DNA of 64,000 nt. It comes from an uncultured Gammaproteobacteria bacterium. Its GTDB lineage: Bacteria; Patescibacteriota; Microgenomatia; Levybacterales; UBA12049. Positions 40 to 28,163 of this stretch are shown piece by piece. The DNA lies in assembly GCA_965230895.1 (NCBI GenBank), contig OZ246394.1:505316-569315 (forward strand). The letters are read 5' to 3'. How positions within the stretch are numbered: the first letter of the stretch is position 1; each line of letters begins with the position of its first letter. The position numbers and the translations under genes are program-made. The notes under the pieces were generated by a model, which was not told the DNA's origin, did no database searches, and saw nothing but the letters and a program-made list of their open reading frames with translations.

Positions 40-2061
40 TTGACTGTCATTTTTGCCCTCTGGACAGTCGCTAATTATTTTTCTCTTAATTCTTCGTCCG
101 CAGATGCAACACTCTTTTGGATTAGAGCTGTCATGTTTATTACTGCTCCACTTGGACCAGTGCTCTATTTATTCATCAAAGCATTCCCCCATCGAGAACT
201 CCAGATAAATAAATCTTTCCTTTATATATTAACTGGCTTAACTTTATTTGTGATGGCAATTGCATTTACTCCGCTTATTTTCTCAGGTGTAACAATTACA
301 AACCAAATTACTCCAACACCAGCACCTGGAATTGTCTTATTTGCTCTTTTATTCATGGGTCTTCCAATTGTCGGCATCTATGAAATTATCCGTAAGTATA
401 AGAAGGCAGTTGGTGTTGAGAAACAGCAATTAAAATTTCTCGTCTTTGGAATTAGTTTGACATTTATTCTTCTTATTCTTACTAATTTTGTCTTTGTCGT
501 CCTTTTCAAATTATCTGATCTTGTGATTTTTGGACCAATTTTCTCGCTTATTTTTGTTGGATTTATATTCTATGCAATTGTGAAGCATCGCTTACTTGCT
601 ATTAGATTTATCATTGCGAGAACGGTTACCTATTCTTTTTTAATTGCAGTTCTCGCATCCATTTATACATTGGGTGTTTTCTTTATCAGTAGATATATCT
701 TCCAAGAGGAATCAATAACACAACAACGATTTACTTCAGCACTCCTTGCGACATTCATTGTTTTGACATTTGATCCCATAAAAACTGCTGTACAGAAAGC
801 AACCGACCATGTTTTCTTCCGAGGTAAATATAATTCAGATGAACTTATATTAGAACTCACAACAATTATTGCATCAACATTTAAGTTAAAAACACTTACA
901 TCAAATACCATGGCAAAGCTTTTTTCTAAACTGCATATAGAAAAAGGTTCATTTATTATTTATCGAAAACAGCATAAATTCTCAGTCATTACAAAAGGAT
1001 ATAAAAAGCCACCAACATATAGAAAAGAAATTGTCGACCATTTATTTGCATTAAAGCGTATGGTAATTCTTGATGAGGAAAAGGATAAAACAGTTAAACA
1101 GATTATGCATAAGCTCGGTGTAGCTATTGCAGTTCCTCTTTCAGAGCGTGAACAAAACGAAGGATTGCTTCTTCTTGGAAACAAAAAATCTGGAGAAATT
1201 TATACACCGCAAGATATTAAAGTGCTCGAAATCTTTGGCCCACTTATCTCAATTGCTATTCAAAACGCGAAGTCTTATGAAGAAATTAAAGGATTTAATA
1301 AGACATTGAGTGACAAAATCACCATAGCTACAAAAGAGTTACAAGACTCACATGAGAAATTAAAAACACTAGATAAACAAAAAGATAAATTCCTAGGAAT
1401 GGCGTCTCATGAATTAAAAACGCCTATTACGTCTATTAAAGCATTTACACAAGTTCTGTATCGAAGAATTGATCGAGAAAAGCATCAGGATTACGCATCA
1501 CTTCTGGAAAATATTAATACACAAACAGATAAAGTAACTAAGTTAATTAATGATCTTCTTAATGTCAGTAATATTGAAGAAGGTAAACTTGTATTAAAGA
1601 AAGAGATGTTTGATGCAAACGCTTTAGTCGCCAAAACTATTTCCGATATTCAGTACACTACAGATACACACCAAATTATGCGAGAAGGAAAATTGAAAAC
1701 ACAAGTCTATGGTGATGCAGATCGTATAGCTCAAGTTATTGCGAACCTGCTTACCAACGCGATTAAGTATTCACCAAAAGCAGATAAACTGATTGTCAAA
1801 GTTGCTGAAGATAAGAAAAACGCTATATTTACTGTCCAGGATTTCGGACCGGGTATTGAAAAGGGAGATATAGAAAAAGTATTCGAAAGATTTTATCGAA
1901 CAAAGGAACATGAAGAAAGAAATATTGCTGGTTTTGGATTGGGATTGTATATCGCGTCAGAAATTGTGAAACGTCATCATGGAAGAATTTGGGTAACAAG
2001 CCAAAAAGGTAAAGGTGCATCATTTAACTTTACTATACCTCTTTATAAATCAACAAATTAA
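40..2061 (+). CDS. Sensor histidine kinase with polytopic membrane N-terminus and GAF-like linker. It may extend upstream of the window, since there is no in-frame stop before position 40.
   Basis: HisKA H-box MASHELKTPITSIK. HATPase_c G-boxes DFGPGI and GFGLGLYIASEIVKRHHGRIWV. Multiple hydrophobic TM segments in the first 230 aa. Confidence 0.85.
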   Translation: MTVIFALWTVANYFSLNSSSADATLFWIRAVMFITAPLGPVLYLFIKAFPHRELQINKSFLYILTGLTLFVMAIAFTPLIFSGVTITNQITPTPAPGIVLFALLFMGLPIVGIYEIIRKYKKAVGVEKQQLKFLVFGISLTFILLILTNFVFVVLFKLSDLVIFGPIFSLIFVGFIFYAIVKHRLLAIRFIIARTVTYSFLIAVLASIYTLGVFFISRYIFQEESITQQRFTSALLATFIVLTFDPIKTAVQKATDHVFFRGKYNSDELILELTTIIASTFKLKTLTSNTMAKLFSKLHIEKGSFIIYRKQHKFSVITKGYKKPPTYRKEIVDHLFALKRMVILDEEKDKTVKQIMHKLGVAIAVPLSEREQNEGLLLLGNKKSGEIYTPQDIKVLEIFGPLISIAIQNAKSYEEIKGFNKTLSDKITIATKELQDSHEKLKTLDKQKDKFLGMASHELKTPITSIKAFTQVLYRRIDREKHQDYASLLENINTQTDKVTKLINDLLNVSNIEEGKLVLKKEMFDANALVAKTISDIQYTTDTHQIMREGKLKTQVYGDADRIAQVIANLLTNAIKYSPKADKLIVKVAEDKKNAIFTVQDFGPGIEKGDIEKVFERFYRTKEHEERNIAGFGLGLYIASEIVKRHHGRIWVTSQKGKGASFNFTIPLYKSTN

Positions 2062-2355: not shown

Positions 2356-3321
2356 TTGTGCTATGATGCAGATATGAAAACCGCATATAAAAAAGCTGTA
2401 TTTATTATCAATCCTGCAAGCGGACAAGGCGATCCGAACAGAAGAATTAGCGAGATAAAGACTATCGCAAAATCGTATGGATGGACGGGTAAAACACTTT
2501 TAACTACCAAGAAAAAGAATGCTGAAGTTTTGGCCAGAAATGCAATAGCTGATGGAGCGAAGCATATCGTTATTTGTGGCGGCGATGGGACAATTATGGA
2601 AGCTTTACAAGCTGTGATAAATACCCAAGTTGTACTCGGCATTGTCCCACTTGGAACAGGAAATTTACTTGCACAAAACTTAGGTCTGATCTATCCGCTT
2701 GATGAAGCAATCAATATTGCCCTTTTGGGAAAAATACAAAAAATTGATGTAGGGAAGGCAAATGATAAGTTTTTCGCAATTATTGCAGGGATTGGTTTTG
2801 ATGCTGATTTGATGAAAGAAACCAAAAGAGAACTCAAAAGAAAATATGGATTCTTCGCCTATCTTTTCAGTAGTATTAAAGCATTTAATAAGAAATCTGG
2901 CTGGTACGAAGTTTCTGTTGATGGTAAACCCTCAAAGAAGTTTAAAGCAAAGAGTATTATGATTGCCAATATGGGCAAACTACAAGCTGGATTTGAAGCA
3001 GTACCAAATGCACATTATCGAAATGGCATTTTACAAATTGCAATTATTCAAGCTTCGACTCTTCGTTCATTTCTTAATCTTGTCGCAAACGCACTTTTAG
3101 GGACACTACAAAGAAGTCCACATTATACTTTATTAACAGGGAAAAGTGTTCGTGTTTCTCCGTTGCGAGGAGCAAAACCATACCAGTTGGATGGGAACCA
3201 TTTTCCTCCGATAGCGACTCTTGAAGTAGAAATTTTCCCGAAGTCAGTTTCAATACTTGTAACTCCTGACGAAAAGGGTTTAAAAAATAAGCTCCCCTCT
3301 TTATTGCAATTTAAGAAATAG
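2356..3321 (+). CDS. Diacylglycerol-kinase catalytic-domain lipid kinase (YegS/DgkA-like)
   Basis: Motifs ICGGDGT and LGIVPLGTGNLLA typical of the DAGK_cat family. Confidence 0.8.
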   Translation: MCYDADMKTAYKKAVFIINPASGQGDPNRRISEIKTIAKSYGWTGKTLLTTKKKNAEVLARNAIADGAKHIVICGGDGTIMEALQAVINTQVVLGIVPLGTGNLLAQNLGLIYPLDEAINIALLGKIQKIDVGKANDKFFAIIAGIGFDADLMKETKRELKRKYGFFAYLFSSIKAFNKKSGWYEVSVDGKPSKKFKAKSIMIANMGKLQAGFEAVPNAHYRNGILQIAIIQASTLRSFLNLVANALLGTLQRSPHYTLLTGKSVRVSPLRGAKPYQLDGNHFPPIATLEVEIFPKSVSILVTPDEKGLKNKLPSLLQFKK

Positions 3322-3322
3322 C

Positions 3323-3574
3323 GTGTATACTGAAGTGGTTATGTATTATTCACATGATTGCACGTATTGTCACAAAGTATTTTACACGTACAATAGCGAC
3401 CGACACGCTGCTGCTTCTACCTTGTATTATGGTATTAAAAAGCATCTGGTCGATTATAACGAAGATGAAAAAGAACATGAACTTGATGATGGTCCATCAA
3501 TGGATATAGCTCAGATCGAAGGTGCAATGACTGAACTTGCTGATGCTCCTGCAGGAGCATATGAACTAAAATAA
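3323..3574 (+). CDS. Hypothetical small Cys/His-containing protein
   Basis: ORF only. HDCTYCHK may be a zinc-binding motif. Confidence 0.35.
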   Translation: MYTEVVMYYSHDCTYCHKVFYTYNSDRHAAASTLYYGIKKHLVDYNEDEKEHELDDGPSMDIAQIEGAMTELADAPAGAYELK

Positions 3575-3838
3575 TTAGTCTCTCTCCACCGTAATTGTAC
3601 ATTCCACCACAAGGGCAGCGATAGCTCCAACACCTGCAAGTACAGGCGCGATAGCTACACCCACGAGTCCAAGAGTTAATGGGAATACAACAAGAGTTTT
3701 TCCATTTTTATCTTTAATAGTGATTTTTCTGATATTTCCTTCCTTAATTAATTCTTTTACCTTTTTAACAAGGTTTTCTCCATTAACTTCAAAAGATTCT
3801 TCCTTTTTGTTTTCAGTTTTTGTTTTTGCAGCTGGCAT
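3575..3838 (-). CDS. DUF4342 domain protein
   Basis: ITIKDKNGKTLVVFPLTLGLVGVAIAPVLAGVGAIAALVVECTITVER matches the DUF4342 conserved core. Confidence 0.7.
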   Translation of the reverse strand: MPAAKTKTENKKEESFEVNGENLVKKVKELIKEGNIRKITIKDKNGKTLVVFPLTLGLVGVAIAPVLAGVGAIAALVVECTITVERD

Positions 3839-3931
3839 ATAATCACCTCCTTTACGTACTCTATTGTAACACTTCCTATCAATAAAATTGTCATTCTCTG
3901 CAGTCTATCGTATAATAGTTAAGCCCATATT

Positions 3932-5149
3932 GTGAAAATAGGAATATTTACTGACGCTTATCTGCCTCTCCCAAACGGTGTCGCCACAGCGGTCGATAGG
4001 ACTGCACGTGCTTTAGAAAAGCATGGACATGAAGTTACGATAGTTGCTCCCAATGTGCCAGGCTATCAAGATACAGACGATCATATCTACAGACTTCCTT
4101 CTGTTGGATTTTTAGCAACAGGTACAAGATTCGCGCTCCATGTGCCAAATAAAACCCTCCTGCAAATCGTGCAAAAAGAATTTGATGTTATTCATGCTTA
4201 CAATGGTGGTCCAATCAGTCTATTGGCCTGGGAATTGGCAAAAACAAAAAGAATTCCTTATGTCTTTAGTTATTGCACATTGCTTGTGCAATACAAGCAC
4301 TATCTAGGGAAATGGTTGGGCAATGAAGCATTTATGCGCATGCTTAGTCGTGTCATTTGTAATTATTGTGATTACCTTATCGTCCCGACTGAAGCAGTAA
4401 AGAGAGAATTAATAGAGTATGGAGTTGAAAAACCTATGCATGCTCATCCAACTGGAATCGAGCTTGACCTTTACCAATCAGGGAAAAAAGGGTTTATTCG
4501 AAAGAAGCTTGGATTGGGCAAACAAACAAAGATCCTCCTTCATGTCGGTCGATTAGGGAAAGAAAAAGCAATCGATTTTATTATTGATGCATTTGTCCAA
4601 ATTCAAAAGAAAACTCCAGATAGTGTTCTTGTACTTGTAGGTGAGGGTGCTGACAAAGACATTTTGCAGGAGCGAGTTGATCAGGTAGGATTGCATGATA
4701 AAGTTCATTTCCTCGGGGTTTTCTCTCCAGAAAAATTGCCTGATATTTATACAGATGCTGATATTTTTCTCTTTGCTTCACAAACGGAAACGCAAGGACT
4801 TGTAATTCTCGAAGCGCTTGCTTCATCACTTCCGATCGTCGCAGTCAAGGATAATGTGTTCGATGGGATTCTCGAAGATGGAAAGAACAGCTATCTAGTC
4901 AAAAAAGATAAGAACGTTTATGCAGATAAAGTGGTAAAGCTATTGCAGGATGAAAAACTCCGTAAAGAATTTGCAGAACAAAGTTTGAAATCTGCGCAAA
5001 AATTCTCAATTGAGAAGACTGCGATTGAACTCGAAACAATCTTCGAAGAGCTGATTCGTGAATTTGACCAAACGCCTTTAAGCTCTCGCAGAAAATACCT
5101 TTATAAATTCCACGGATTAATGAAGCCATTTTTATTGGTGAGGAAATAA
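3932..5149 (+). CDS. Glycosyltransferase family 4 (GT-B, group 1). GTG start.
   Basis: C-terminal ETQGLVILEALASSLPIVAV motif (E-x7-E). Overall GT4 architecture. Confidence 0.85.
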   Translation: MKIGIFTDAYLPLPNGVATAVDRTARALEKHGHEVTIVAPNVPGYQDTDDHIYRLPSVGFLATGTRFALHVPNKTLLQIVQKEFDVIHAYNGGPISLLAWELAKTKRIPYVFSYCTLLVQYKHYLGKWLGNEAFMRMLSRVICNYCDYLIVPTEAVKRELIEYGVEKPMHAHPTGIELDLYQSGKKGFIRKKLGLGKQTKILLHVGRLGKEKAIDFIIDAFVQIQKKTPDSVLVLVGEGADKDILQERVDQVGLHDKVHFLGVFSPEKLPDIYTDADIFLFASQTETQGLVILEALASSLPIVAVKDNVFDGILEDGKNSYLVKKDKNVYADKVVKLLQDEKLRKEFAEQSLKSAQKFSIEKTAIELETIFEELIREFDQTPLSSRRKYLYKFHGLMKPFLLVRK

Positions 5150-10830: not shown

Positions 10831-11978
10831 TATATGCTTGTAAGCATATTTTTTACTTGCTCTGCACTTATAACTACAGGAGTATTAGCTGCTCTGTTAG
10901 TATAAAAACTTTCCTTAACTATTAAGTCTATACCTGACTTAATTATTCCTAATTCTGACAATTTTGTCTTTAAGCCAATTTCTTTAATTAATCTTTTTAT
11001 TAATTCTTCAGCCTCATTATGTGCAGTAACATTTAGAGCTTTTAATAAATCGTGCTCAATTCTTGGAGAAAGCTTAGGAAGAAATAATTTCAGGAATGAT
11101 GGCATTGTTAATGCTACTGCTTGGCCGTGTTGTATATTCCAATGTGCAGTTATCGGATAAGATACCGCATGACAAATAGTTGTTTGAGTATTTGAAAAAG
11201 CCAAACCACTATATAATGAACCTAAAGCCATATTATCTCTTACAAGAACATTGGGAGAATGTACAGCATTGGAAATACTATTAATAATAAGCTCAATAGC
11301 TTTTAAAGAATATCTTCTTGTTACACTATTACTATTTATATTCCAATATGATTCTATTGCTTGGCATAGGGCGTCAATTCCTGATGTAGCTGAGATGGAC
11401 GGGCTTAAATCATCAGTAAGCGAAGGATCTATTATTGCATAGTCAGGAAACATGTATTCGGAAGTAAGTGAGTATTTCTTCTTATCATCACCCCATACAG
11501 TAGCCCATGGTGTCACTTCACTCCCTGTACCTGATGTTGTTGGAACAGCAATTAGTTGTAATCCTTTATGTGTCAGTTGTCTAGATTTGTTTTTAATATA
11601 ATCTTCTAATAATCCATCATGCTCTGCTAATATACATGCAGATTTTACTACATCTATGATTTTGCCACCTCCAATTGCTATCACTGAATCAAACTTATTC
11701 TTTCTTAAATATTTGGCAAGTTCATCAATAGTTTTATTGTTAGATTTTAGGATTTTCCCTGTATACAAAGTAAAACTAATTGCTCTTTTTAGTTGATCAA
11801 ATTTAGCTGTAGTTTTAAAATGCTCTCCACAAACAATTAAAATTGAAGTATCATTTGAAGTGATTTTATTTAACCTTTCTTCTAAGATATCTCTGCCATA
11901 GTATACTTTCACTGGCATAAAGTAATTCTTAGTTTTTTTAGGAGGAATATACATGTTACCTAAATTTTTCAATTTCAT
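10827..11978 (-). CDS. Iron-containing (group III) alcohol dehydrogenase. Candidate phosphonoacetaldehyde reductase (FomC/PhpC-like).
   Basis: Fe-ADH motifs IGGGKIIDVVK and VPTTSGTGSEVTPWA. Overlaps the ppd stop, so it is in the same operon. Confidence 0.75.
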   Translation of the reverse strand: MKLKNLGNMYIPPKKTKNYFMPVKVYYGRDILEERLNKITSNDTSILIVCGEHFKTTAKFDQLKRAISFTLYTGKILKSNNKTIDELAKYLRKNKFDSVIAIGGGKIIDVVKSACILAEHDGLLEDYIKNKSRQLTHKGLQLIAVPTTSGTGSEVTPWATVWGDDKKKYSLTSEYMFPDYAIIDPSLTDDLSPSISATSGIDALCQAIESYWNINSNSVTRRYSLKAIELIINSISNAVHSPNVLVRDNMALGSLYSGLAFSNTQTTICHAVSYPITAHWNIQHGQAVALTMPSFLKLFLPKLSPRIEHDLLKALNVTAHNEAEELIKRLIKEIGLKTKLSELGIIKSGIDLIVKESFYTNRAANTPVVISAEQVKNMLTSIY

Positions 11979-13062
11979 TCATAAACAATTCTTTTACTTC
12001 AGGCGCAGAGTATTTTTCTGAGACACGCATAGATTTATGTGTAGTATTAAAGTTTATTTTAATATGTAGAAACACACTTTTATTTTTAGCTTCTTGTATT
12101 TTAGTTAATGCTGTTTGAAGCTGGTCTTTAGTTTTTACAAGTTCAATTATTTCAAATCCAAATGCTTTTGCTAATAAAGCAAAATTAACCTTTTTTGAAA
12201 CGGTTGGCTGGCAACCTGTACTCTCACACACCTCATTATCTAAAACAATATAAACTAAGTTTTTGTGCTTGTATGGATCAAATGATCCCATACCACCTAA
12301 ATGCATGAGAGATGACGCATCTCCATCCAAAATAATGGTTCTTTCCTTAGTATTTTCAGCGACACCTAATCCAAGGGCTAAAGTATGCCCCATAGATCCC
12401 ATCATATAAAAATCTTTTGTAGGATTCACAGTAAAAGAATCTCTTGAAGGAAATCCTGTTGATGAAATAAATAAAGAATTAGATGCTAACTGCTCTTTTA
12501 TTTTTTGAACAACTTCATATCTATCCATTTCATATCCATTATCCATTGGTTCTAATTTATATTCATCAAAAGTGTTTTTCTTTACAATTAATGCCACTGG
12601 CTTATTCGTTTTTCTAGCTTTAGTAGCCAACCTTTCAATTTGTTCTGAGTATAACTGATCATCTATAATTTCATATGGTATTTGGAATGTGTCCATAATT
12701 TTTTCTAAATTTTCTCCAACGACATCGTGCTCAGGAGCATCTGCACCTACGCCACCTTCACCTCTCCAAGTGACAACATAAAAAACTGGTATTTGATAAA
12801 TCTGATTCAATGAGGTTAACGCATTCAAGGTATTCATTAAGCCTGAATTTTGCATCATGACAATGGGTAGCTTTCCTGTACTCAAATAATGACCAGATGC
12901 TATTCCCATAGCAAGTCCTTCGTTAACAGGATTGATAACATTCATAGAATTAGTCGCTATGATGTAGTTGAGCAAGTTCTTAAAGTAAGAACAAGGAACT
13001 TGAACGAGTGGTCCCAAGTTATTCTTAATTAATGCATTTGTGAAATCTTTTGGTTTAATCAT
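11956..13062 (-). CDS. ppd: Phosphonopyruvate decarboxylase (thiamine-diphosphate dependent)
   Basis: TPP-binding ILDGDASSLMHLGGMGS ... VLDNE. About 370 aa. Directly follows pepM. Confidence 0.75.
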   Translation of the reverse strand: MIKPKDFTNALIKNNLGPLVQVPCSYFKNLLNYIIATNSMNVINPVNEGLAMGIASGHYLSTGKLPIVMMQNSGLMNTLNALTSLNQIYQIPVFYVVTWRGEGGVGADAPEHDVVGENLEKIMDTFQIPYEIIDDQLYSEQIERLATKARKTNKPVALIVKKNTFDEYKLEPMDNGYEMDRYEVVQKIKEQLASNSLFISSTGFPSRDSFTVNPTKDFYMMGSMGHTLALGLGVAENTKERTIILDGDASSLMHLGGMGSFDPYKHKNLVYIVLDNEVCESTGCQPTVSKKVNFALLAKAFGFEIIELVKTKDQLQTALTKIQEAKNKSVFLHIKINFNTTHKSMRVSEKYSAPEVKELFMNEIEKFR

Positions 13063-13899
13063 TTATGTACCCTCTTTATCTCTACTAACAGTTTCAAGCA
13101 TTCCTACTGTCTCAAATAATGTGCTTATTTCTACACATTTTTCTTCAGCTTCTGTTGATCTATCATTCAATAATATACTTTTACATACTTCTTCCATGGC
13201 CTTATATGCTGATCTCAAAAGATGATTTGCATAGATGATAATATTGAATCCTTCTTTCGCTAATTCTGATGCAGTAATCGCATTGTAAGTTGTAGGAACA
13301 CATACTAATACCTTTCCTCTTGTTAAACTTTCAGGAAGTAATTTATATTGTCTTGCAAACTCAATAATTTCATCTGGTGCTTTCGACTTAGAATGAATCA
13401 TTATGCCATCTGCACCCGCCTTTAAAAATGCCTCAGCGCGTGCTATAGCATCTTTGACTGTTTCACCTGAGATTAAACTTTCAAGTCTAGCTACAATCAT
13501 AAAATCATCGCTCTGTTTTGCTTCAATACCTCTTTTTATTTTTCTTGAAAATACTTCAATGCTTTCTAGATTTTGATTTGTTTCCGCAAAACTATTTCTT
13601 TTAGGAAAGACTTTATCTTCGATAATTACCATAGATGCTCCAGCACGCTCCAATCTACGTACTAAGTATTCGAAGTGATTAATATCTCCTCCACTGTCAC
13701 CATCCACAATCATTGGCTTCGTAGTTACATCTAAGATTTGATGAATTGTATGAAGTCTCGAATCAGAGCTAACAAGTTCTATATCTGGCAATCCTTTCGA
13801 AGCAGAATCTGTCAAGCTGCTCTCCCAGAATCCATCAAAAGAATATTCTGCTGAGTTTTTAGTAATACTAATATTAGCAATATAAATTAGAAAAAACAA
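13063..13899 (-). CDS. pepM: Phosphoenolpyruvate phosphomutase (PEP mutase)
   Basis: Diagnostic EDKxxxxxNS motif (IIEDKVFPKRNSF). Extended colinear similarity to known PepM (GFWESSLTDSAS, MIVARLESL, AGADGIMIHSK, IIIYANHLLRS). Confidence 0.9.
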   Translation of the reverse strand: MFFLIYIANISITKNSAEYSFDGFWESSLTDSASKGLPDIELVSSDSRLHTIHQILDVTTKPMIVDGDSGGDINHFEYLVRRLERAGASMVIIEDKVFPKRNSFAETNQNLESIEVFSRKIKRGIEAKQSDDFMIVARLESLISGETVKDAIARAEAFLKAGADGIMIHSKSKAPDEIIEFARQYKLLPESLTRGKVLVCVPTTYNAITASELAKEGFNIIIYANHLLRSAYKAMEEVCKSILLNDRSTEAEEKCVEISTLFETVGMLETVSRDKEGT

Positions 13900-14087
13900 T
13901 AACTAATATATTTTATTAATACATAAATCTATTTTAAAAACACCTGAAGAAGCTTGACTTTAGATTTACTTAAAAAAATTATATGCTTTAGTGAAGTTAA
14001 GAGTAAAAAGTTTAGTTTAGTTTAGCTTGTTCGATCGACCCACACTTTAGATTGATATGACTTGCTAAATTGATTGAGGCAAAATCT

Positions 14088-14163
14088 TGGGGTGGCTGAC
14101 GGGAATCGGACCCGCGACATTCAGTACCACAAACTGACGCTCTACCCCTGAGCTACAGCCACC
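14088..14163 (-). tRNA. tRNA-His (GTG) with encoded G-1 and encoded CCA
   Basis: Cloverleaf folded by hand. Acceptor GTGGCTG/CAGCCAC, D-arm GCTC-AGGGGTA-GAGC, anticodon arm TCAGT-TTGTGGT-ACTGA, discriminator C, 5' extra G pairing with C73. Confidence 0.85.
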
Positions 14164-14164
14164 A

Positions 14165-14410
14165 TTATTTGAAGAGTTCGTTTCTAATTTCTCTTCCGAC
14201 ACCACTTTTAAAGTATTTTTCTAATTCTCTCGCTTCTGCTCTACTTTGAACTATCTCTACATGAACTAATATAAATGGTCCTCTATGCAAGGTTGATGGT
14301 GTTGAATGAGTTCCTTGATTGTGCTGATCCATTCTTCTACCGATATCATTAGTGATACCTGTGTAGAATTTACCATCTTTTACGCTCTTAATTATATAGC
14401 AGAAATACAT
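14165..14410 (-). CDS. Mini GIY-YIG nuclease-domain protein (81 aa), paralog 1
   Basis: YFCYII...GKFYTGIT...RRMDQH matches the GIY-x10-YIG N-terminal motif. Abuts tRNA-His. Confidence 0.8.
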   Translation of the reverse strand: MYFCYIIKSVKDGKFYTGITNDIGRRMDQHNQGTHSTPSTLHRGPFILVHVEIVQSRAEARELEKYFKSGVGREIRNELFK

Positions 14411-14414
14411 AGAT

Positions 14415-14458
14415 CTCTACCCCTGACCTGCCTGCCGTCAGGCAGGGCTACAGCCACC
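14415..14458 (-). repeat. Duplicated copy of tRNA-His nt -1..23 interrupted by a perfect 8-bp/4-nt-loop hairpin. It is a direct repeat of 14140..14163.
   Basis: ctctacccctga + cctgcctgccgtcaggcagg + gctacagccacc. The outer 24 nt are identical to the 5' part of the adjacent tRNA-His gene. Confidence 0.85.
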
Positions 14459-14526
14459 ATTTGTATAGATAAGTATACCAATTTTTGAATTAAGTTTAAA
14501 GTACCAACTTATAGTATAATACTAGC

Positions 14527-15075
14527 ATGAAAGAAGGTTATATAGGCGGTCCAACTGGTGGAGTTCCTGAAACTATTTTTAGACGAAATTTTGGAAAAAA
14601 TCCTGTAAAAGGTGCATCAGGCGCAGAATTGTTTTGTGAAGTTCGTGAAAGAAAGATTGAGGTTAGATCAACAGAAGAGTCTTATAAATGGACGAGATTC
14701 TTTGGTCAAGTTTCATATGACGGAATATTGGGCTTAAATATTTTAAATCGGGGAATTTTTAATAATCAACCACGACATCCTGATGTTTATGCAGCAAAGT
14801 TAGTGGAACGCTTTGTAGAATTTACAGGTGATAACGGATATCCCGTGTCAGCTATTGATGGGAGATGGCTAGAATCTGGAATGAATAGTAAAACATTTAG
14901 AAACTATTTAGATACTATTGCCCAAGAACGAGAAATTAGTCCACAAGACGAATTAGATGCAGCGAGAATGACTTGGACTGGAGCGTTGGCACATCGACTA
15001 GGATATGCGAACACTGAAGTTATTGATAATGGGAGACAGTCAAATGTCGTGTGGGCAAGATTTCGAAGAAGCTAA
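14527..15075 (+). CDS. Hypothetical protein
   Basis: ORF only. No recognisable motif. Confidence 0.4.
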   Translation: MKEGYIGGPTGGVPETIFRRNFGKNPVKGASGAELFCEVRERKIEVRSTEESYKWTRFFGQVSYDGILGLNILNRGIFNNQPRHPDVYAAKLVERFVEFTGDNGYPVSAIDGRWLESGMNSKTFRNYLDTIAQEREISPQDELDAARMTWTGALAHRLGYANTEVIDNGRQSNVVWARFRRS

Positions 15076-19819: not shown

Positions 19820-19825
19820 ACCTTC

Positions 19826-19854
19826 GTCATTGCGAGCGTAGCGCGGCAATCTCA
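19826..19854. repeat. Left 29-bp terminal inverted repeat of the GIY-YIG cassette
   Basis: gtcattgcgagcgtagcgcggcaatctca. Its reverse complement recurs at 20149..20177 with one mismatch. Confidence 0.85.
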
Positions 19855-19855
19855 T

Positions 19856-20143
19856 TTAAAGAATCTTCTTATATAAATCTTCCCACTCAGGATTCACGTT
19901 TTCTATTAATATTACTTTCTTTTTTCGCGATCCTGATTTTAATTGTTTTTCTCTAAGAATTGCTTCTTCTATTTCCTGATATTGTTCGTAATAAACTAGT
20001 TTATTGACATTATATTTTTGAGTAAATCCTTTTGTTGTCTTATGTTTATGTTGGTATACACGCTTTAGAAGATCACTACAAACTCCAATATAGAGTGTTG
20101 TATTCCATTCGTTGGTCAATATATAAATATATGAATACTTCAT
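19856..20143 (-). CDS. Mini GIY-YIG nuclease-domain protein (95 aa), paralog 2
   Basis: YSYIYILTNEWNTTLYIGVCSDLLKRVYQH GIY-YIG motif. Flanked by inverted repeats. Confidence 0.8.
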   Translation of the reverse strand: MKYSYIYILTNEWNTTLYIGVCSDLLKRVYQHKHKTTKGFTQKYNVNKLVYYEQYQEIEEAILREKQLKSGSRKKKVILIENVNPEWEDLYKKIL

Positions 20144-20148
20144 TATTG

Positions 20149-20177
20149 TGAGATTGCCACGCTACGCTCGCAATGAC
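20149..20177. repeat. Right 29-bp terminal inverted repeat of the GIY-YIG cassette
   Basis: tgagattgccacgctacgctcgcaatgac is the reverse complement of the left repeat (28/29 match). Confidence 0.85.
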
Positions 20178-20185
20178 GGGTATAC

Positions 20186-27714: not shown

Positions 27715-27788
27715 GCACCCGTAGCTCAGCTGGATAGAGCACTTGACTTCGGATCAGGGGGTCGGGGGTTCGAATCCCTCCGGGTGTA
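27715..27788 (+). tRNA. tRNA-Arg (TCG)
   Basis: Hand-folded. Acceptor GCACCCG, D-arm GCTC-AGCTGGATA-GAGC, anticodon loop CTTCGGA, T-arm GGGGG-TTCGAAT-CCCTC. No encoded CCA. Confidence 0.8.
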
Positions 27789-27902
27789 CGACGCACCAGT
27801 CGGTGCATCGCTTCGCTGCGATACAAAAAAGCGTTATTTTAAGAAAAATATTCTAAACTGGATGTGCGTCAGGGATGTACCGTATGGTACGTCCCCAAAT
27901 CC

Positions 27903-28163
27903 ATGTTCTACTACGTCTGTATCTTACATAATTATTCAAAAAGTTTTATTTATACGGGTTACTCGGAAGATTTAAAACAAAGACTAACTTCTCATAAAGC
28001 AGGGAAAAATAAATCAACAAAGGCTTTTCTCCCATTAGAACTCATCCATTATGAAGCGTATAAGAGTAAAACTGACGCTAAAAGAAGAGAGTTATACTTT
28101 AAAACCACGAAGGGTAAAACAACGTTAAGAACTATGCTTAAAGACTATTTTAATGGAGATTAA
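27903..28163 (+). CDS. Mini GIY-YIG nuclease-domain protein (86 aa from the internal ATG), paralog 3
   Basis: MFYYVCILHNYSKSFIYTGYSEDLKQRLTSH aligns with the other two paralogs. Lies downstream of tRNA-Arg. Confidence 0.75.
   Translation: MFYYVCILHNYSKSFIYTGYSEDLKQRLTSHKAGKNKSTKAFLPLELIHYEAYKSKTDAKRRELYFKTTKGKTTLRTMLKDYFNGD

Follow-up and report, generated by a model that had tools for sequence, protein, structure and literature searches.

A stretch of 64,000 nucleotides (nt) of contig OZ246394.1 (positions 505,316 to 569,315), referred to here as the window, carries on its minus strand a very small gene of the GIY-YIG nuclease type, set between an intact gene for histidine transfer RNA (tRNA-His) and a second, broken copy of the 5' end of the same tRNA gene. 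This arrangement raised the question of how such a gene came to lie there, and why the copied tRNA end is split by a hairpin. Our analyses showed that the window locus is one copy of a large, recurrent family of tRNA-gene-associated GIY-YIG cassettes and is not there by chance. The explanation that we favor, to which we assign a probability of about 0.6, is that the cassette is a selfish element of tRNA transcription units, which arises and spreads when its nuclease breaks tRNA genes and homologous recombination follows.

Read along the minus strand, the locus begins with a promoter-like site (14472..14500; TTTAAA, a 17-nt spacer and TG-TATACT) that was recognized in a consensus scan by its consensus match alone and that lies just 5' of the dead tRNA fragment. 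The fragment opens with copy A (14447..14461; AATGGTGGCTGTAGC), which consists of AAT followed by tRNA-His from G-1 to C11 (this tRNA part reads GGTGGCTGTAGC) and is an exact duplicate of 14152-14166 (repeat of 15 nt, 100%). A GC-rich palindrome of 20 nt follows (14427..14446; CCTGCCTGACGGCAGGCAGG on the minus strand), inserted cleanly between tRNA positions 11 and 12; it has an 8-bp stem and a 4-nt loop, and the same 8-bp stem appeared in the RNA fold. The tRNA sequence then resumes as copy B' (14415..14426, minus strand; TCAGGGGTAGAG), T12 to G24, an exact duplicate of 14140-14151. After a spacer of 4 nt, ATCT (14411..14414), comes the start codon of the minimal GIY-YIG gene (14165..14410), whose 81-residue (aa) product matches Pfam PF01541 with E=1.7e-17. 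A single T separates its stop codon from G-1 of the intact tRNA-His(GTG) gene (14088..14163), in which both G-1 and CCA are encoded. ARAGORN and Rfam (RF00005, 62.8 bits) called this tRNA at 14088-14162, with G-1 being position 14163.

All 24 nt from G-1 to G24 (14140-14163) are therefore present again as two exact 12-mers (14447-14458 and 14415-14426) that flank the palindrome, and the repeat is longer by a further 3 nt, AAT (14164-14166 and 14459-14461), giving a total of 27 nt. An earlier note on this DNA had described a 24-nt duplicate of the tRNA 5' end split by a perfect 8-bp hairpin, an 81-aa GIY-YIG gene in the 251-nt interval between the copies, and an ATG 4 nt past the duplicate. These descriptions were borne out, although the hairpin does not lie within the D-loop, as had been stated, but parts C11 from T12 in the 5' strand of the D-stem. 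A single open reading frame (ORF), the GIY-YIG gene, fills the 251-nt interval and is the sole family-matching ORF of at least 60 aa there. Neither the 24-mer (with up to three mismatches) nor the palindrome had a chance match in the window in 100 shuffles. In addition, contigs of four separate sequencing runs (L005, L206, L207, L208; L numbers are our handles for loci) were 100% identical to the window across the parts that they cover, so that the duplicate is real and not an assembly artefact.

A search of 13900-14650 found no terminator-like site, and the palindrome was ruled out as an intrinsic terminator because no T-run lies 3' of its stem (the next letters are TCAGGGG). In an Rfam scan of the window only the two tRNAs reached the gathering score, and no intron or other RNA family was found in the leader or the interrupted copy. 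The leader was also considered as a structured RNA; this was rejected, as it matches no Rfam family and its fold was no better than that of shuffled sequence (z=-1.28).

Homologs of the window protein, 23 in number, were found in a collection of 5.8 billion sequences, and relatives at 55-73% protein identity keep the order of tRNA-His 5' fragment, palindrome, ORF and intact tRNA-His. The earlier note had named relatives with the same layout and no duplicate as counter-evidence; the relatives do carry the duplicate. In those that are 70-73% identical, the palindrome stands after position 22-24, a further tRNA piece comes next, and the copied stretch reaches the anticodon stem. The position of the palindrome differs even among close relatives, being after 11 in the window and after 22-24 in L001, L003 and L006. 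The 81-aa protein of the window is recorded in Logan assemblies only; the neighboring gene is present in NCBI. In L001 a large serine recombinase gene (3262-4851; Resolvase/Recombinase Pfam) on the opposite strand abuts, or by the called coordinates overlaps, the 3' end of the cassette tRNA-His, and it may represent a second, integrase-type element on the same tRNA.

The extent of the layout was gauged by a scan of species representatives (one genome per species) with the family profile, from which the 80 best loci were used. By their record titles these loci come from Patescibacteria lineages, Bacteroidota, Ignavibacteriota, Acidobacteriota, Planctomycetia, Omnitrophota and others. A same-strand tRNA gene adjoins the ORF in 69 of the 80, lying downstream within 120 nt in 57 and upstream only in 12. 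Among the 57 loci with a downstream tRNA, 41 repeat the 5' end of that tRNA exactly, over 8 nt or more, upstream of the ORF. A GC-rich hairpin stands right at the end of this repeat in 40 of the 41, and beyond the hairpin the tRNA sequence in most cases continues with nothing duplicated or lost. There is also a mirror form, in which the intact tRNA is upstream and a partial 3' copy lies downstream of the ORF, with the hairpin ahead of the copy, just before the T-stem. Seven of the 12 upstream-only loci have an exact 3' copy, preceded by a hairpin in six, and the mirror-form duplicate sometimes takes in the terminator (L038, L034, L043, L063).

Far from being a local feature, the hairpin proved to be a near-invariant 20-nt palindrome that is common to several phyla and dispersed elsewhere too. 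The window palindrome differs from the cross-phylum consensus, CCTGCCTGCCGGCAGGCAGG, at one loop base. With up to four mismatches allowed, the palindrome was found within 300 nt in 43 of the 80 loci, and 26 of the 50 copies are exactly the consensus; the background was seven copies in the remaining 167 kb of DNA of the same loci. About 27 tRNA species serve as neighbors of the cassette. For 34 of 76 proteins the nearest neighbor belongs to a tRNA of the same anticodon (3.8 expected by shuffling); the proteins track the tRNA, yet with ~27 tRNA species in use, switching must occur too.

The cassette also affects the annotation of its own gene. Spurious N- or C-terminal extensions that translate the palindrome (LPAGRQ, PACRQAG, CLPAGR) were present in 20 of the 150 top family representatives, an independent sample that accords with the scan of loci, and the translation of tRNA fragments and palindromes as N-terminal extensions is a recurring annotation error. 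Gene callers often extend ORFs upstream across the palindrome and tRNA fragment (e.g., ..VVPWWLWRSGSPVCRQAG..; P0007, P0027-P0165) and also run them downstream into the tRNA, which yields C-termini such as WWV and VAQW.

Comparison of the copies provided signs of both mobility and selection. In L027 the D-stem of the dead tRNA copy is a perfectly paired GCGC/GCGC and that of the intact copy is GTTC/GAAT, and five of the six differences are compensatory. Because the dead-copy stem is perfectly paired and the differences compensatory, the two copies are different functional alleles, and the one that probably came in from elsewhere is the intact copy, beside the nuclease gene. In L006, too, the dead and intact copies have unlike acceptor stems. 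Within tRNA-specific clades the third codon positions of the ORFs are only 40-55% identical, whereas the palindrome, compared for tRNA-His and tRNA-Gly, varies at 0-3 of its 20 nt. The palindrome is thus maintained by selection or re-copying, its conservation being far above the neutral expectation. In these clades the dead tRNA pieces also remain near-identical to the live tRNA (e.g., 64/64 nt in L067), and the repeats evolve in concert.

Where the palindrome does vary, the variants retain intrastrand pairing, with CCTGTC...GACAGG being recurrent. One variant, CCTGTCTACCGACAGGTAGA (e.g., the downstream copies of L034 and L060), has five substitutions; it forms two overlapping perfect 6-bp hairpins and keeps 5 of 10 full-register pairs. 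These variants suggest that the conserved feature is two overlapping 6-bp hairpins (1-6 with 11-16 and 5-10 with 15-20) and not a full 10-bp stem. The hairpin occupies stem/loop junctions of the cloverleaf, most often following nt 21-24 and otherwise following nt 9-11 or 31-32 or preceding the T-stem. Other GC-rich hairpin families (e.g., CCGCCTTGGGCGG, CAGCCCAAGGCTG, CCCTCCGAATCGGAGGG, CCCGCCAATTGGCGGG) occupy the same place of dead tRNA copies in L045, L053, L083, L085, L009, L052, L055, L057 and L065, some of them nested or doubled.

The Pfam match places the window protein in the GIY-YIG superfamily, and the catalytic Y5, Y16, H30 and E64, together with R57, are invariant in the 23 homologs, with R25/R26 nearly so. 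The AlphaFold model (pLDDT 90) has strands at residues 2-9, 15-20 and 46-54 and helices at 23-32 and 57-68, in the beta-beta-alpha-beta-alpha order of the superfamily. The family profile had only two matches in the PDB, 1ZG2 (1.3e-12) and 1YWL (1.9e-11), both of which are UPF0213 proteins. Foldseek with the model returned 1ZG2, then Slx1 (7CQ2, 4XM5, 6SEH), at TM 0.64-0.67, with UvrC at 0.56 and I-TevI at 0.54. The protein has the features of a minimal stand-alone domain of the UPF0213 or prokaryotic Slx1-like kind, whose members have about 80-110 aa and resemble BH0048, EF2693 and the nuclease domain of Slx1. It stops after the nuclease domain, without a C-terminal RING/zinc-finger domain of the Slx1 type, and as a single domain of 81 aa it also lacks the C-terminal DNA-binding domain of the Seg/I-TevI type; its score with TIGR01453 was 17 bits, against a cut-off of 56. 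By sequence and modeled fold, the proteins of the tRNA cassettes thus belong to the UPF0213/Slx1-like stand-alone GIY-YIG family, which is large (19,725 clusters at 50% identity, E<=1e-3). Matches to phage homing-endonuclease families were weak (PHROG E ~1e-5), as were those to phage GenBank records. A PADLOC search with the protein found no match, and a defense-system reading was dropped.

Slx1 is a structure-specific nuclease, and in eukaryotic Slx1-Slx4 it has a C-terminal RING/zinc-finger domain and the partner Slx4. Structures of the UPF0213 type have been solved since 2005, and we found no assigned function for UPF0213/Slx1-type stand-alone domains in the searchable literature. The prokaryotic stand-alone domains have been described as the minimal form of the fold and as occurring in fusions with tRNA or RNA methyltransferases, with no link to tRNA genes given (Dunin-Horkawicz et al. 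2006, PMC1564403). The earlier note had proposed a minimal tRNA-targeting homing cassette. The recurrence of the cassette at ~27 tRNA species supports the proposal as regards the cassette, but not as regards the family: since the protein lacks a DNA-binding domain and resembles Slx1/UPF0213 rather than I-TevI, the term homing endonuclease can denote a way of working and not family membership.

In the mechanism that we propose, the nuclease would nick or cut tRNA-gene DNA at the stem/loop junctions of the cloverleaf-forming sequence, by analogy with the phage endonuclease SegB. Homologous recombination through conserved tRNA sequence would then either duplicate the cassette locally or copy it to a matching tRNA gene that is still free of it. 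Breaks and recombination of this sort would account for both the partial tRNA duplication and the tandem arrays; if the target is re-formed after insertion, tandem arrays are predicted, and tandem units were seen in L049, L021, L024 and L046. The ORF and the tRNA are 1 nt apart, so that a promoter for the tRNA alone could not fit between them, and transcription as a single precursor is therefore the most economical reading. The old tRNA-His promoter, presumably the site at 14472..14500, would drive leader, ORF and tRNA together, and RNase P would free the tRNA from this precursor. The host would in this way retain its essential tRNA while the cassette gained a strong promoter. A second promoter-like match (14419..14391, 10/12) has its -10 hexamer inside the ORF start, and a separate promoter there could drive the tRNA.

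Under the same mechanism, the palindrome would be no scar but a small mobile element that acts in cis for the cassette or travels with it. It might serve as a recognition structure for the Slx1-like enzyme, destroy the target in the dead copy, break up the direct repeats and so guard the cassette against loss, or allow escape from heteroduplex repair.

The window holds two more genes of this kind, as the earlier note had stated. Both match PF01541 and are ~30% identical to the window protein, but only one adjoins a tRNA gene, and it does so without a detectable duplicate. This gene, paralog 2 (27903..28163, plus strand; 86 aa from its ATG), starts 114 nt downstream of tRNA-Arg(TCG) (27715..27789, plus strand; ARAGORN, Rfam), so that both tRNA genes of the window have a mini GIY-YIG neighbor. 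A hairpin unlike the main palindrome, GGGATGTACCGTATGGTACGTCCCC, precedes it (about 27873-27897), and no tRNA-Arg duplicate was detectable on either side, the best match being no better than shuffled sequence. Paralog 3 (ORF 19856-20143, minus strand; 95 aa) lies instead within a tight inverted repeat of 30 nt, 97% complementary (19825-19854 and 20149-20178; CGTCATTGCGAGCGTAGCG.GGCAATCTCA), the whole spanning 19825..20178. Its setting is thus of the terminal-inverted-repeat type, transposon-like and unlike the tRNA cassette. Repeats related to the flanks of paralog 3, GTCATTGCGAG / GTCATTCTGAGCG, adjoin palindrome copies in L104, L130, L141 and L163. Directly 3' of the tRNA-His gene are genes for phosphoenolpyruvate (PEP) mutase (13063-13899, minus strand) and for a thiamine pyrophosphate (TPP) enzyme (11956-13062), the usual opening of a phosphonate biosynthesis cluster.

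Several observations weigh against a selfish cassette that is spread by breaks and recombination. Firstly, both the nuclease activity of the family and its tRNA-gene target are predictions, and since domains of this nuclease type occur joined to tRNA methyltransferases (PMC1564403), a host role at the level of RNA is conceivable. Secondly, the re-formed tRNA retains the presumed target, so that self-immunity is not accounted for, and the target-derived copy B' between palindrome and ORF is not predicted by a model of one insert and one cut. Thirdly, no empty tRNA-His site was retrieved from a close relative in a search of the 5.8 billion sequences via the flanking 182-aa ORF, which returned the identical protein or the same organism only, and insertion is thus inferred and not seen; indirect signs of filled and empty alleles are the unlike tRNA alleles of L027 and L006 and the use of ~27 tRNA species. 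No match was found on plasmids, and of the 12 viral contigs with a match most were without a tRNA gene or palindrome. The tandem copies in L049 are ~88% identical, and local duplication is equally possible; we therefore dropped the tandem arrays as proof of repeated invasion. Paralog 2 abuts a tRNA gene without any duplicate. Finally, when metagenome contigs were scanned without bias for exact matches to the 20-mer, at least 120 stretches were found, 80 loci of which are L086-L165, and among the matches listed this nuclease lies within 500 nt of only 2 of the 51 palindrome copies that were far enough from a contig end to be scored, while L120, L137 and L164 are hairpin-interrupted tRNA duplicates with no ORF between the copies.

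These last observations also leave room for a bolder version of the proposal, to which we give a real though lesser chance. In it, the cassette and the palindrome would form a two-part mobile element, in which a structure-specific GIY-YIG nuclease of ~80 aa, expressed from a tRNA promoter and shielded from loss by the adjoining essential tRNA, mobilizes the 20-21-nt palindrome in trans across many phyla. Intergenic hairpins and dead tRNA copies would then be entered by the palindrome, and so would essential genes, where it is read in frame as x-LPAGRQ-x. If true, this two-part element would be the smallest known pairing of autonomous and non-autonomous partners, built on a nuclease that was not previously known as a transposase.

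A different view, which we think unlikely, is that the palindrome is the primary mobile agent, a 20-21-nt element that enters structured DNA and whose insertions into essential tRNAs survive only where a second, intact copy is present; the nuclease would be its mobilizer, stationed beside tRNA genes, or would merely be linked to the tRNA duplications in which the palindrome is tolerated. Most of the exact stretches listed from the scan do lie far from GIY-YIG or tRNA genes, and among the 80 loci listed ~6-7 are in tRNA duplicates and many are intergenic. The palindrome cleanly interrupts unrelated sequences as well: at L127:3593-3612 it frameshifts an IS200/RAYT-like ORF (..HVDIGE, palindrome, FVVMPNHVHGIVV). 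It contains no stop codon in any frame of either strand and lies in frame within several long ORFs, mostly as x-LPAGRQ-x (e.g., L124:389-408, L094:5257-5276, L115:4699-4718). The L124 case is atpA, in which the palindrome coincides with exactly 7 aa (21 nt) that solved AtpA structures lack, although the protein otherwise matches them at E=2.6e-127. Dead tRNA copies can hold several hairpins, such as two tandem palindromes at the anticodon loop in L016 (about -70 to -33 before the ATG), two different hairpins in a full-length tRNA-Cys copy downstream of the ORF in L026, and hairpins after the D-arm and before the T-arm upstream in L030. The ORF-less duplicates and the unlike hairpin positions of the window and its relatives L001 and L003 point in the same direction.

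However, a hairpin exactly at the end of copy A in 40 of 41 cassettes is too regular for late random colonization, and the tRNA-Gly clade keeps both the hairpin position and clade-specific variants, so that the hairpin there is inherited with the cassette. No insertion target motif was found around the palindrome copies beyond a depletion of T at -1 (same-base flanks were 40%, against ~25% expected); the copies are dispersed, with no conserved flank or GTAG head. To our knowledge, a hydrolytic GIY-YIG nuclease has no strand-transfer chemistry. The recurrent gene families near the palindrome at the 80 listed loci were the mini GIY-YIG (three loci) and IS200/RAYT-like genes (two loci, in addition to the interrupted one), the RAYT-like ORFs being 40-330 nt from the palindrome at L096:174-193 (ORF 506-1204, minus strand) and L100:5330-5349 (ORF from 5371). 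A tyrosine (HUH) transposase is therefore an alternative mobilizer. A preference of the palindrome for the apex of pre-existing hairpins was considered and dropped: single cases were suggestive (L102, L149, L138), and flank pairing did not stand out from controls (Mann-Whitney p=0.10).

Could the gene simply serve the host? Here the protein would be a nuclease for housekeeping or quality control that is tied to tRNAs, its substrates being tRNA precursors or the R-loops and other structures that form at heavily transcribed tRNA genes; it would be co-transcribed for regulation, with the tRNA fragment and hairpin as a regulatory or stabilizing leader. The ORF is always on the tRNA strand and a few nt away, implying co-transcription, and the leader hairpin is stable in RNA. 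The lack of a PADLOC match and the weak phage-family matches also fit a host gene, as does the report of Slx1-like domains fused to, or in operons with, TrmH and COG4123 methyltransferases, for which an RNA role was suggested (Dunin-Horkawicz et al. 2006, PMC1564403). We nevertheless consider a host function distinctly improbable. The use of ~27 tRNA species is patchy, and the window alone has three paralogs in 64 kb in three contexts. In the mirror form the hairpin fragment lies downstream of the ORF, where it can have no role as a 5' leader, and the window leader, as noted, has a fold that shuffled sequences equal. Mobile DNA is, moreover, typically marked by tandem arrays, decayed copies and foreign tRNA alleles, the last as in L027.

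Campbell-type integration of a small circle composed of the ORF and a hairpin-interrupted tRNA segment is very unlikely in our judgement, despite its geometric appeal. One circular permutation (tRNA segment, hairpin, tRNA segment, ORF) would yield both architectures by a single crossover, with the side of the crossover deciding between the form with the dead copy upstream and the mirror form, and the ORF is indeed flanked by direct repeats of the target. The earlier note had likewise called the repeats attachment (att)-like. However, an integrase gene would not fit into the 251-nt interval, and the repeats are therefore not the att sites of an integrase; no integrase or recombinase was found in the interval and none is consistently nearby. 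Moreover, the repeats come from the 5' end of the tRNA and are split, plasmid copies were not found, and we know of no means by which a circle of ~300 bp would be replicated or transferred. Coincidence or mis-assembly is already refuted by the shuffles (0/100), the four identical assemblies and the same architecture in dozens of unrelated genomes, isolates included.

If the selfish-cassette explanation is correct, its implications extend beyond the window. An orphan family of the UPF0213/Slx1 type, with its 19,725 clusters, would gain a genomic lifestyle and candidate substrates, namely tRNA-gene DNA and the palindrome, and a class of partial tRNA genes in prokaryotic genomes would be explained. 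The principle known from SegB, nuclease-driven recombination at tRNA genes, would reach beyond phages to bacterial chromosomes across phyla. The palindrome, near-identical from Patescibacteria to Bacteroidota and in frame in atpA, would be a striking piece of selfish DNA in itself. We found no prior description of the architecture of tRNA, GIY-YIG gene and palindrome in the searchable literature, which lacks most subscription journals.

The closest precedent for the way in which the cassette is proposed to work is SegB of phages T4 and T6 (PMC2330249; PMC13096335), a GIY-YIG homing endonuclease whose free-standing gene lies in clusters of tRNA genes. SegB cuts within tRNA genes at the motif RAWTSGAAC, and its breaks drive recombination-dependent tandem amplification of segB together with a tRNA gene; segB co-localizes with tRNA genes of many isotypes (PMC13096335). 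We identify the motif as the T-arm box. The cassette nuclease gene similarly adjoins tRNA genes of many isotypes (69 of 80 loci, ~27 species) and occurs in tandem units of nuclease and tRNA. The two differ in that the cassette protein is the catalytic domain alone, 81 aa and Slx1/UPF0213-like, in bacterial chromosomes of several phyla, whereas SegB is found in phage genomes, and in that a conserved palindrome and a dead, interrupted tRNA fragment are not described for SegB. SegB itself has ~220 aa, including a DNA-binding part.

With respect to the protein, the literature on UPF0213 domains (PMC1564403) gives methyltransferase fusions and no function, tRNA-gene adjacency, target duplication or palindrome. 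The solved domains (1ZG2, 1YWL) are of the same family as the cassette proteins by sequence (E=1e-12) and by fold, and they too have no auxiliary domains. A second comparison is with integrase islands. When such an island or a prophage enters a tRNA gene, part of the target is duplicated and a complete tRNA is restored; these elements are kilobases long, encode a tyrosine or serine recombinase, and usually duplicate the 3' part of the tRNA. Like them, the window cassette has direct repeats of the tRNA at both ends (15 and 12 nt, exact), although these are of the 5' part and are split by the palindrome. The cassettes differ from islands in having no recombinase, in their size of ~275 bp, in duplicating either the 5' or the 3' part, and in the palindrome of the dead copy.

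The palindrome has its own relatives in kind. REP elements are extragenic palindromes with a GTAG head and RAYT transposases, and the Rickettsia palindromic elements (RPEs) also form in-frame insertions in protein-coding genes; as in these elements, short GC-rich palindromes are dispersed here, in frame in atpA and other genes. Unlike the REP/RAYT system, the present palindrome is of 20-21 nt, near-identical across phyla, without a GTAG head and strongly enriched in dead tRNA fragments beside the GIY-YIG gene, RAYT-like genes being near it at 2-3 copies. Fungal mitochondria reportedly contain conserved GC-rich palindromes that are mobile or optional and associated with tRNA genes, with the yeast GC clusters and the Neurospora PstI palindromes, which flank tRNA genes, as the examples said to have been described by Yin, Heckman and RajBhandary in 1981 and by Wenzlau and Perlman in 1990. 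Those palindromes differ in sequence and are organellar, and we know of no linked mini GIY-YIG gene or partial tRNA duplication for them. Based on these comparisons, the supported inference is that in its way of working the cassette is a counterpart of SegB-type free-standing homing-endonuclease elements and re-forms its target as islands do, while it belongs to neither class, having no DNA-binding domain and no recombinase.

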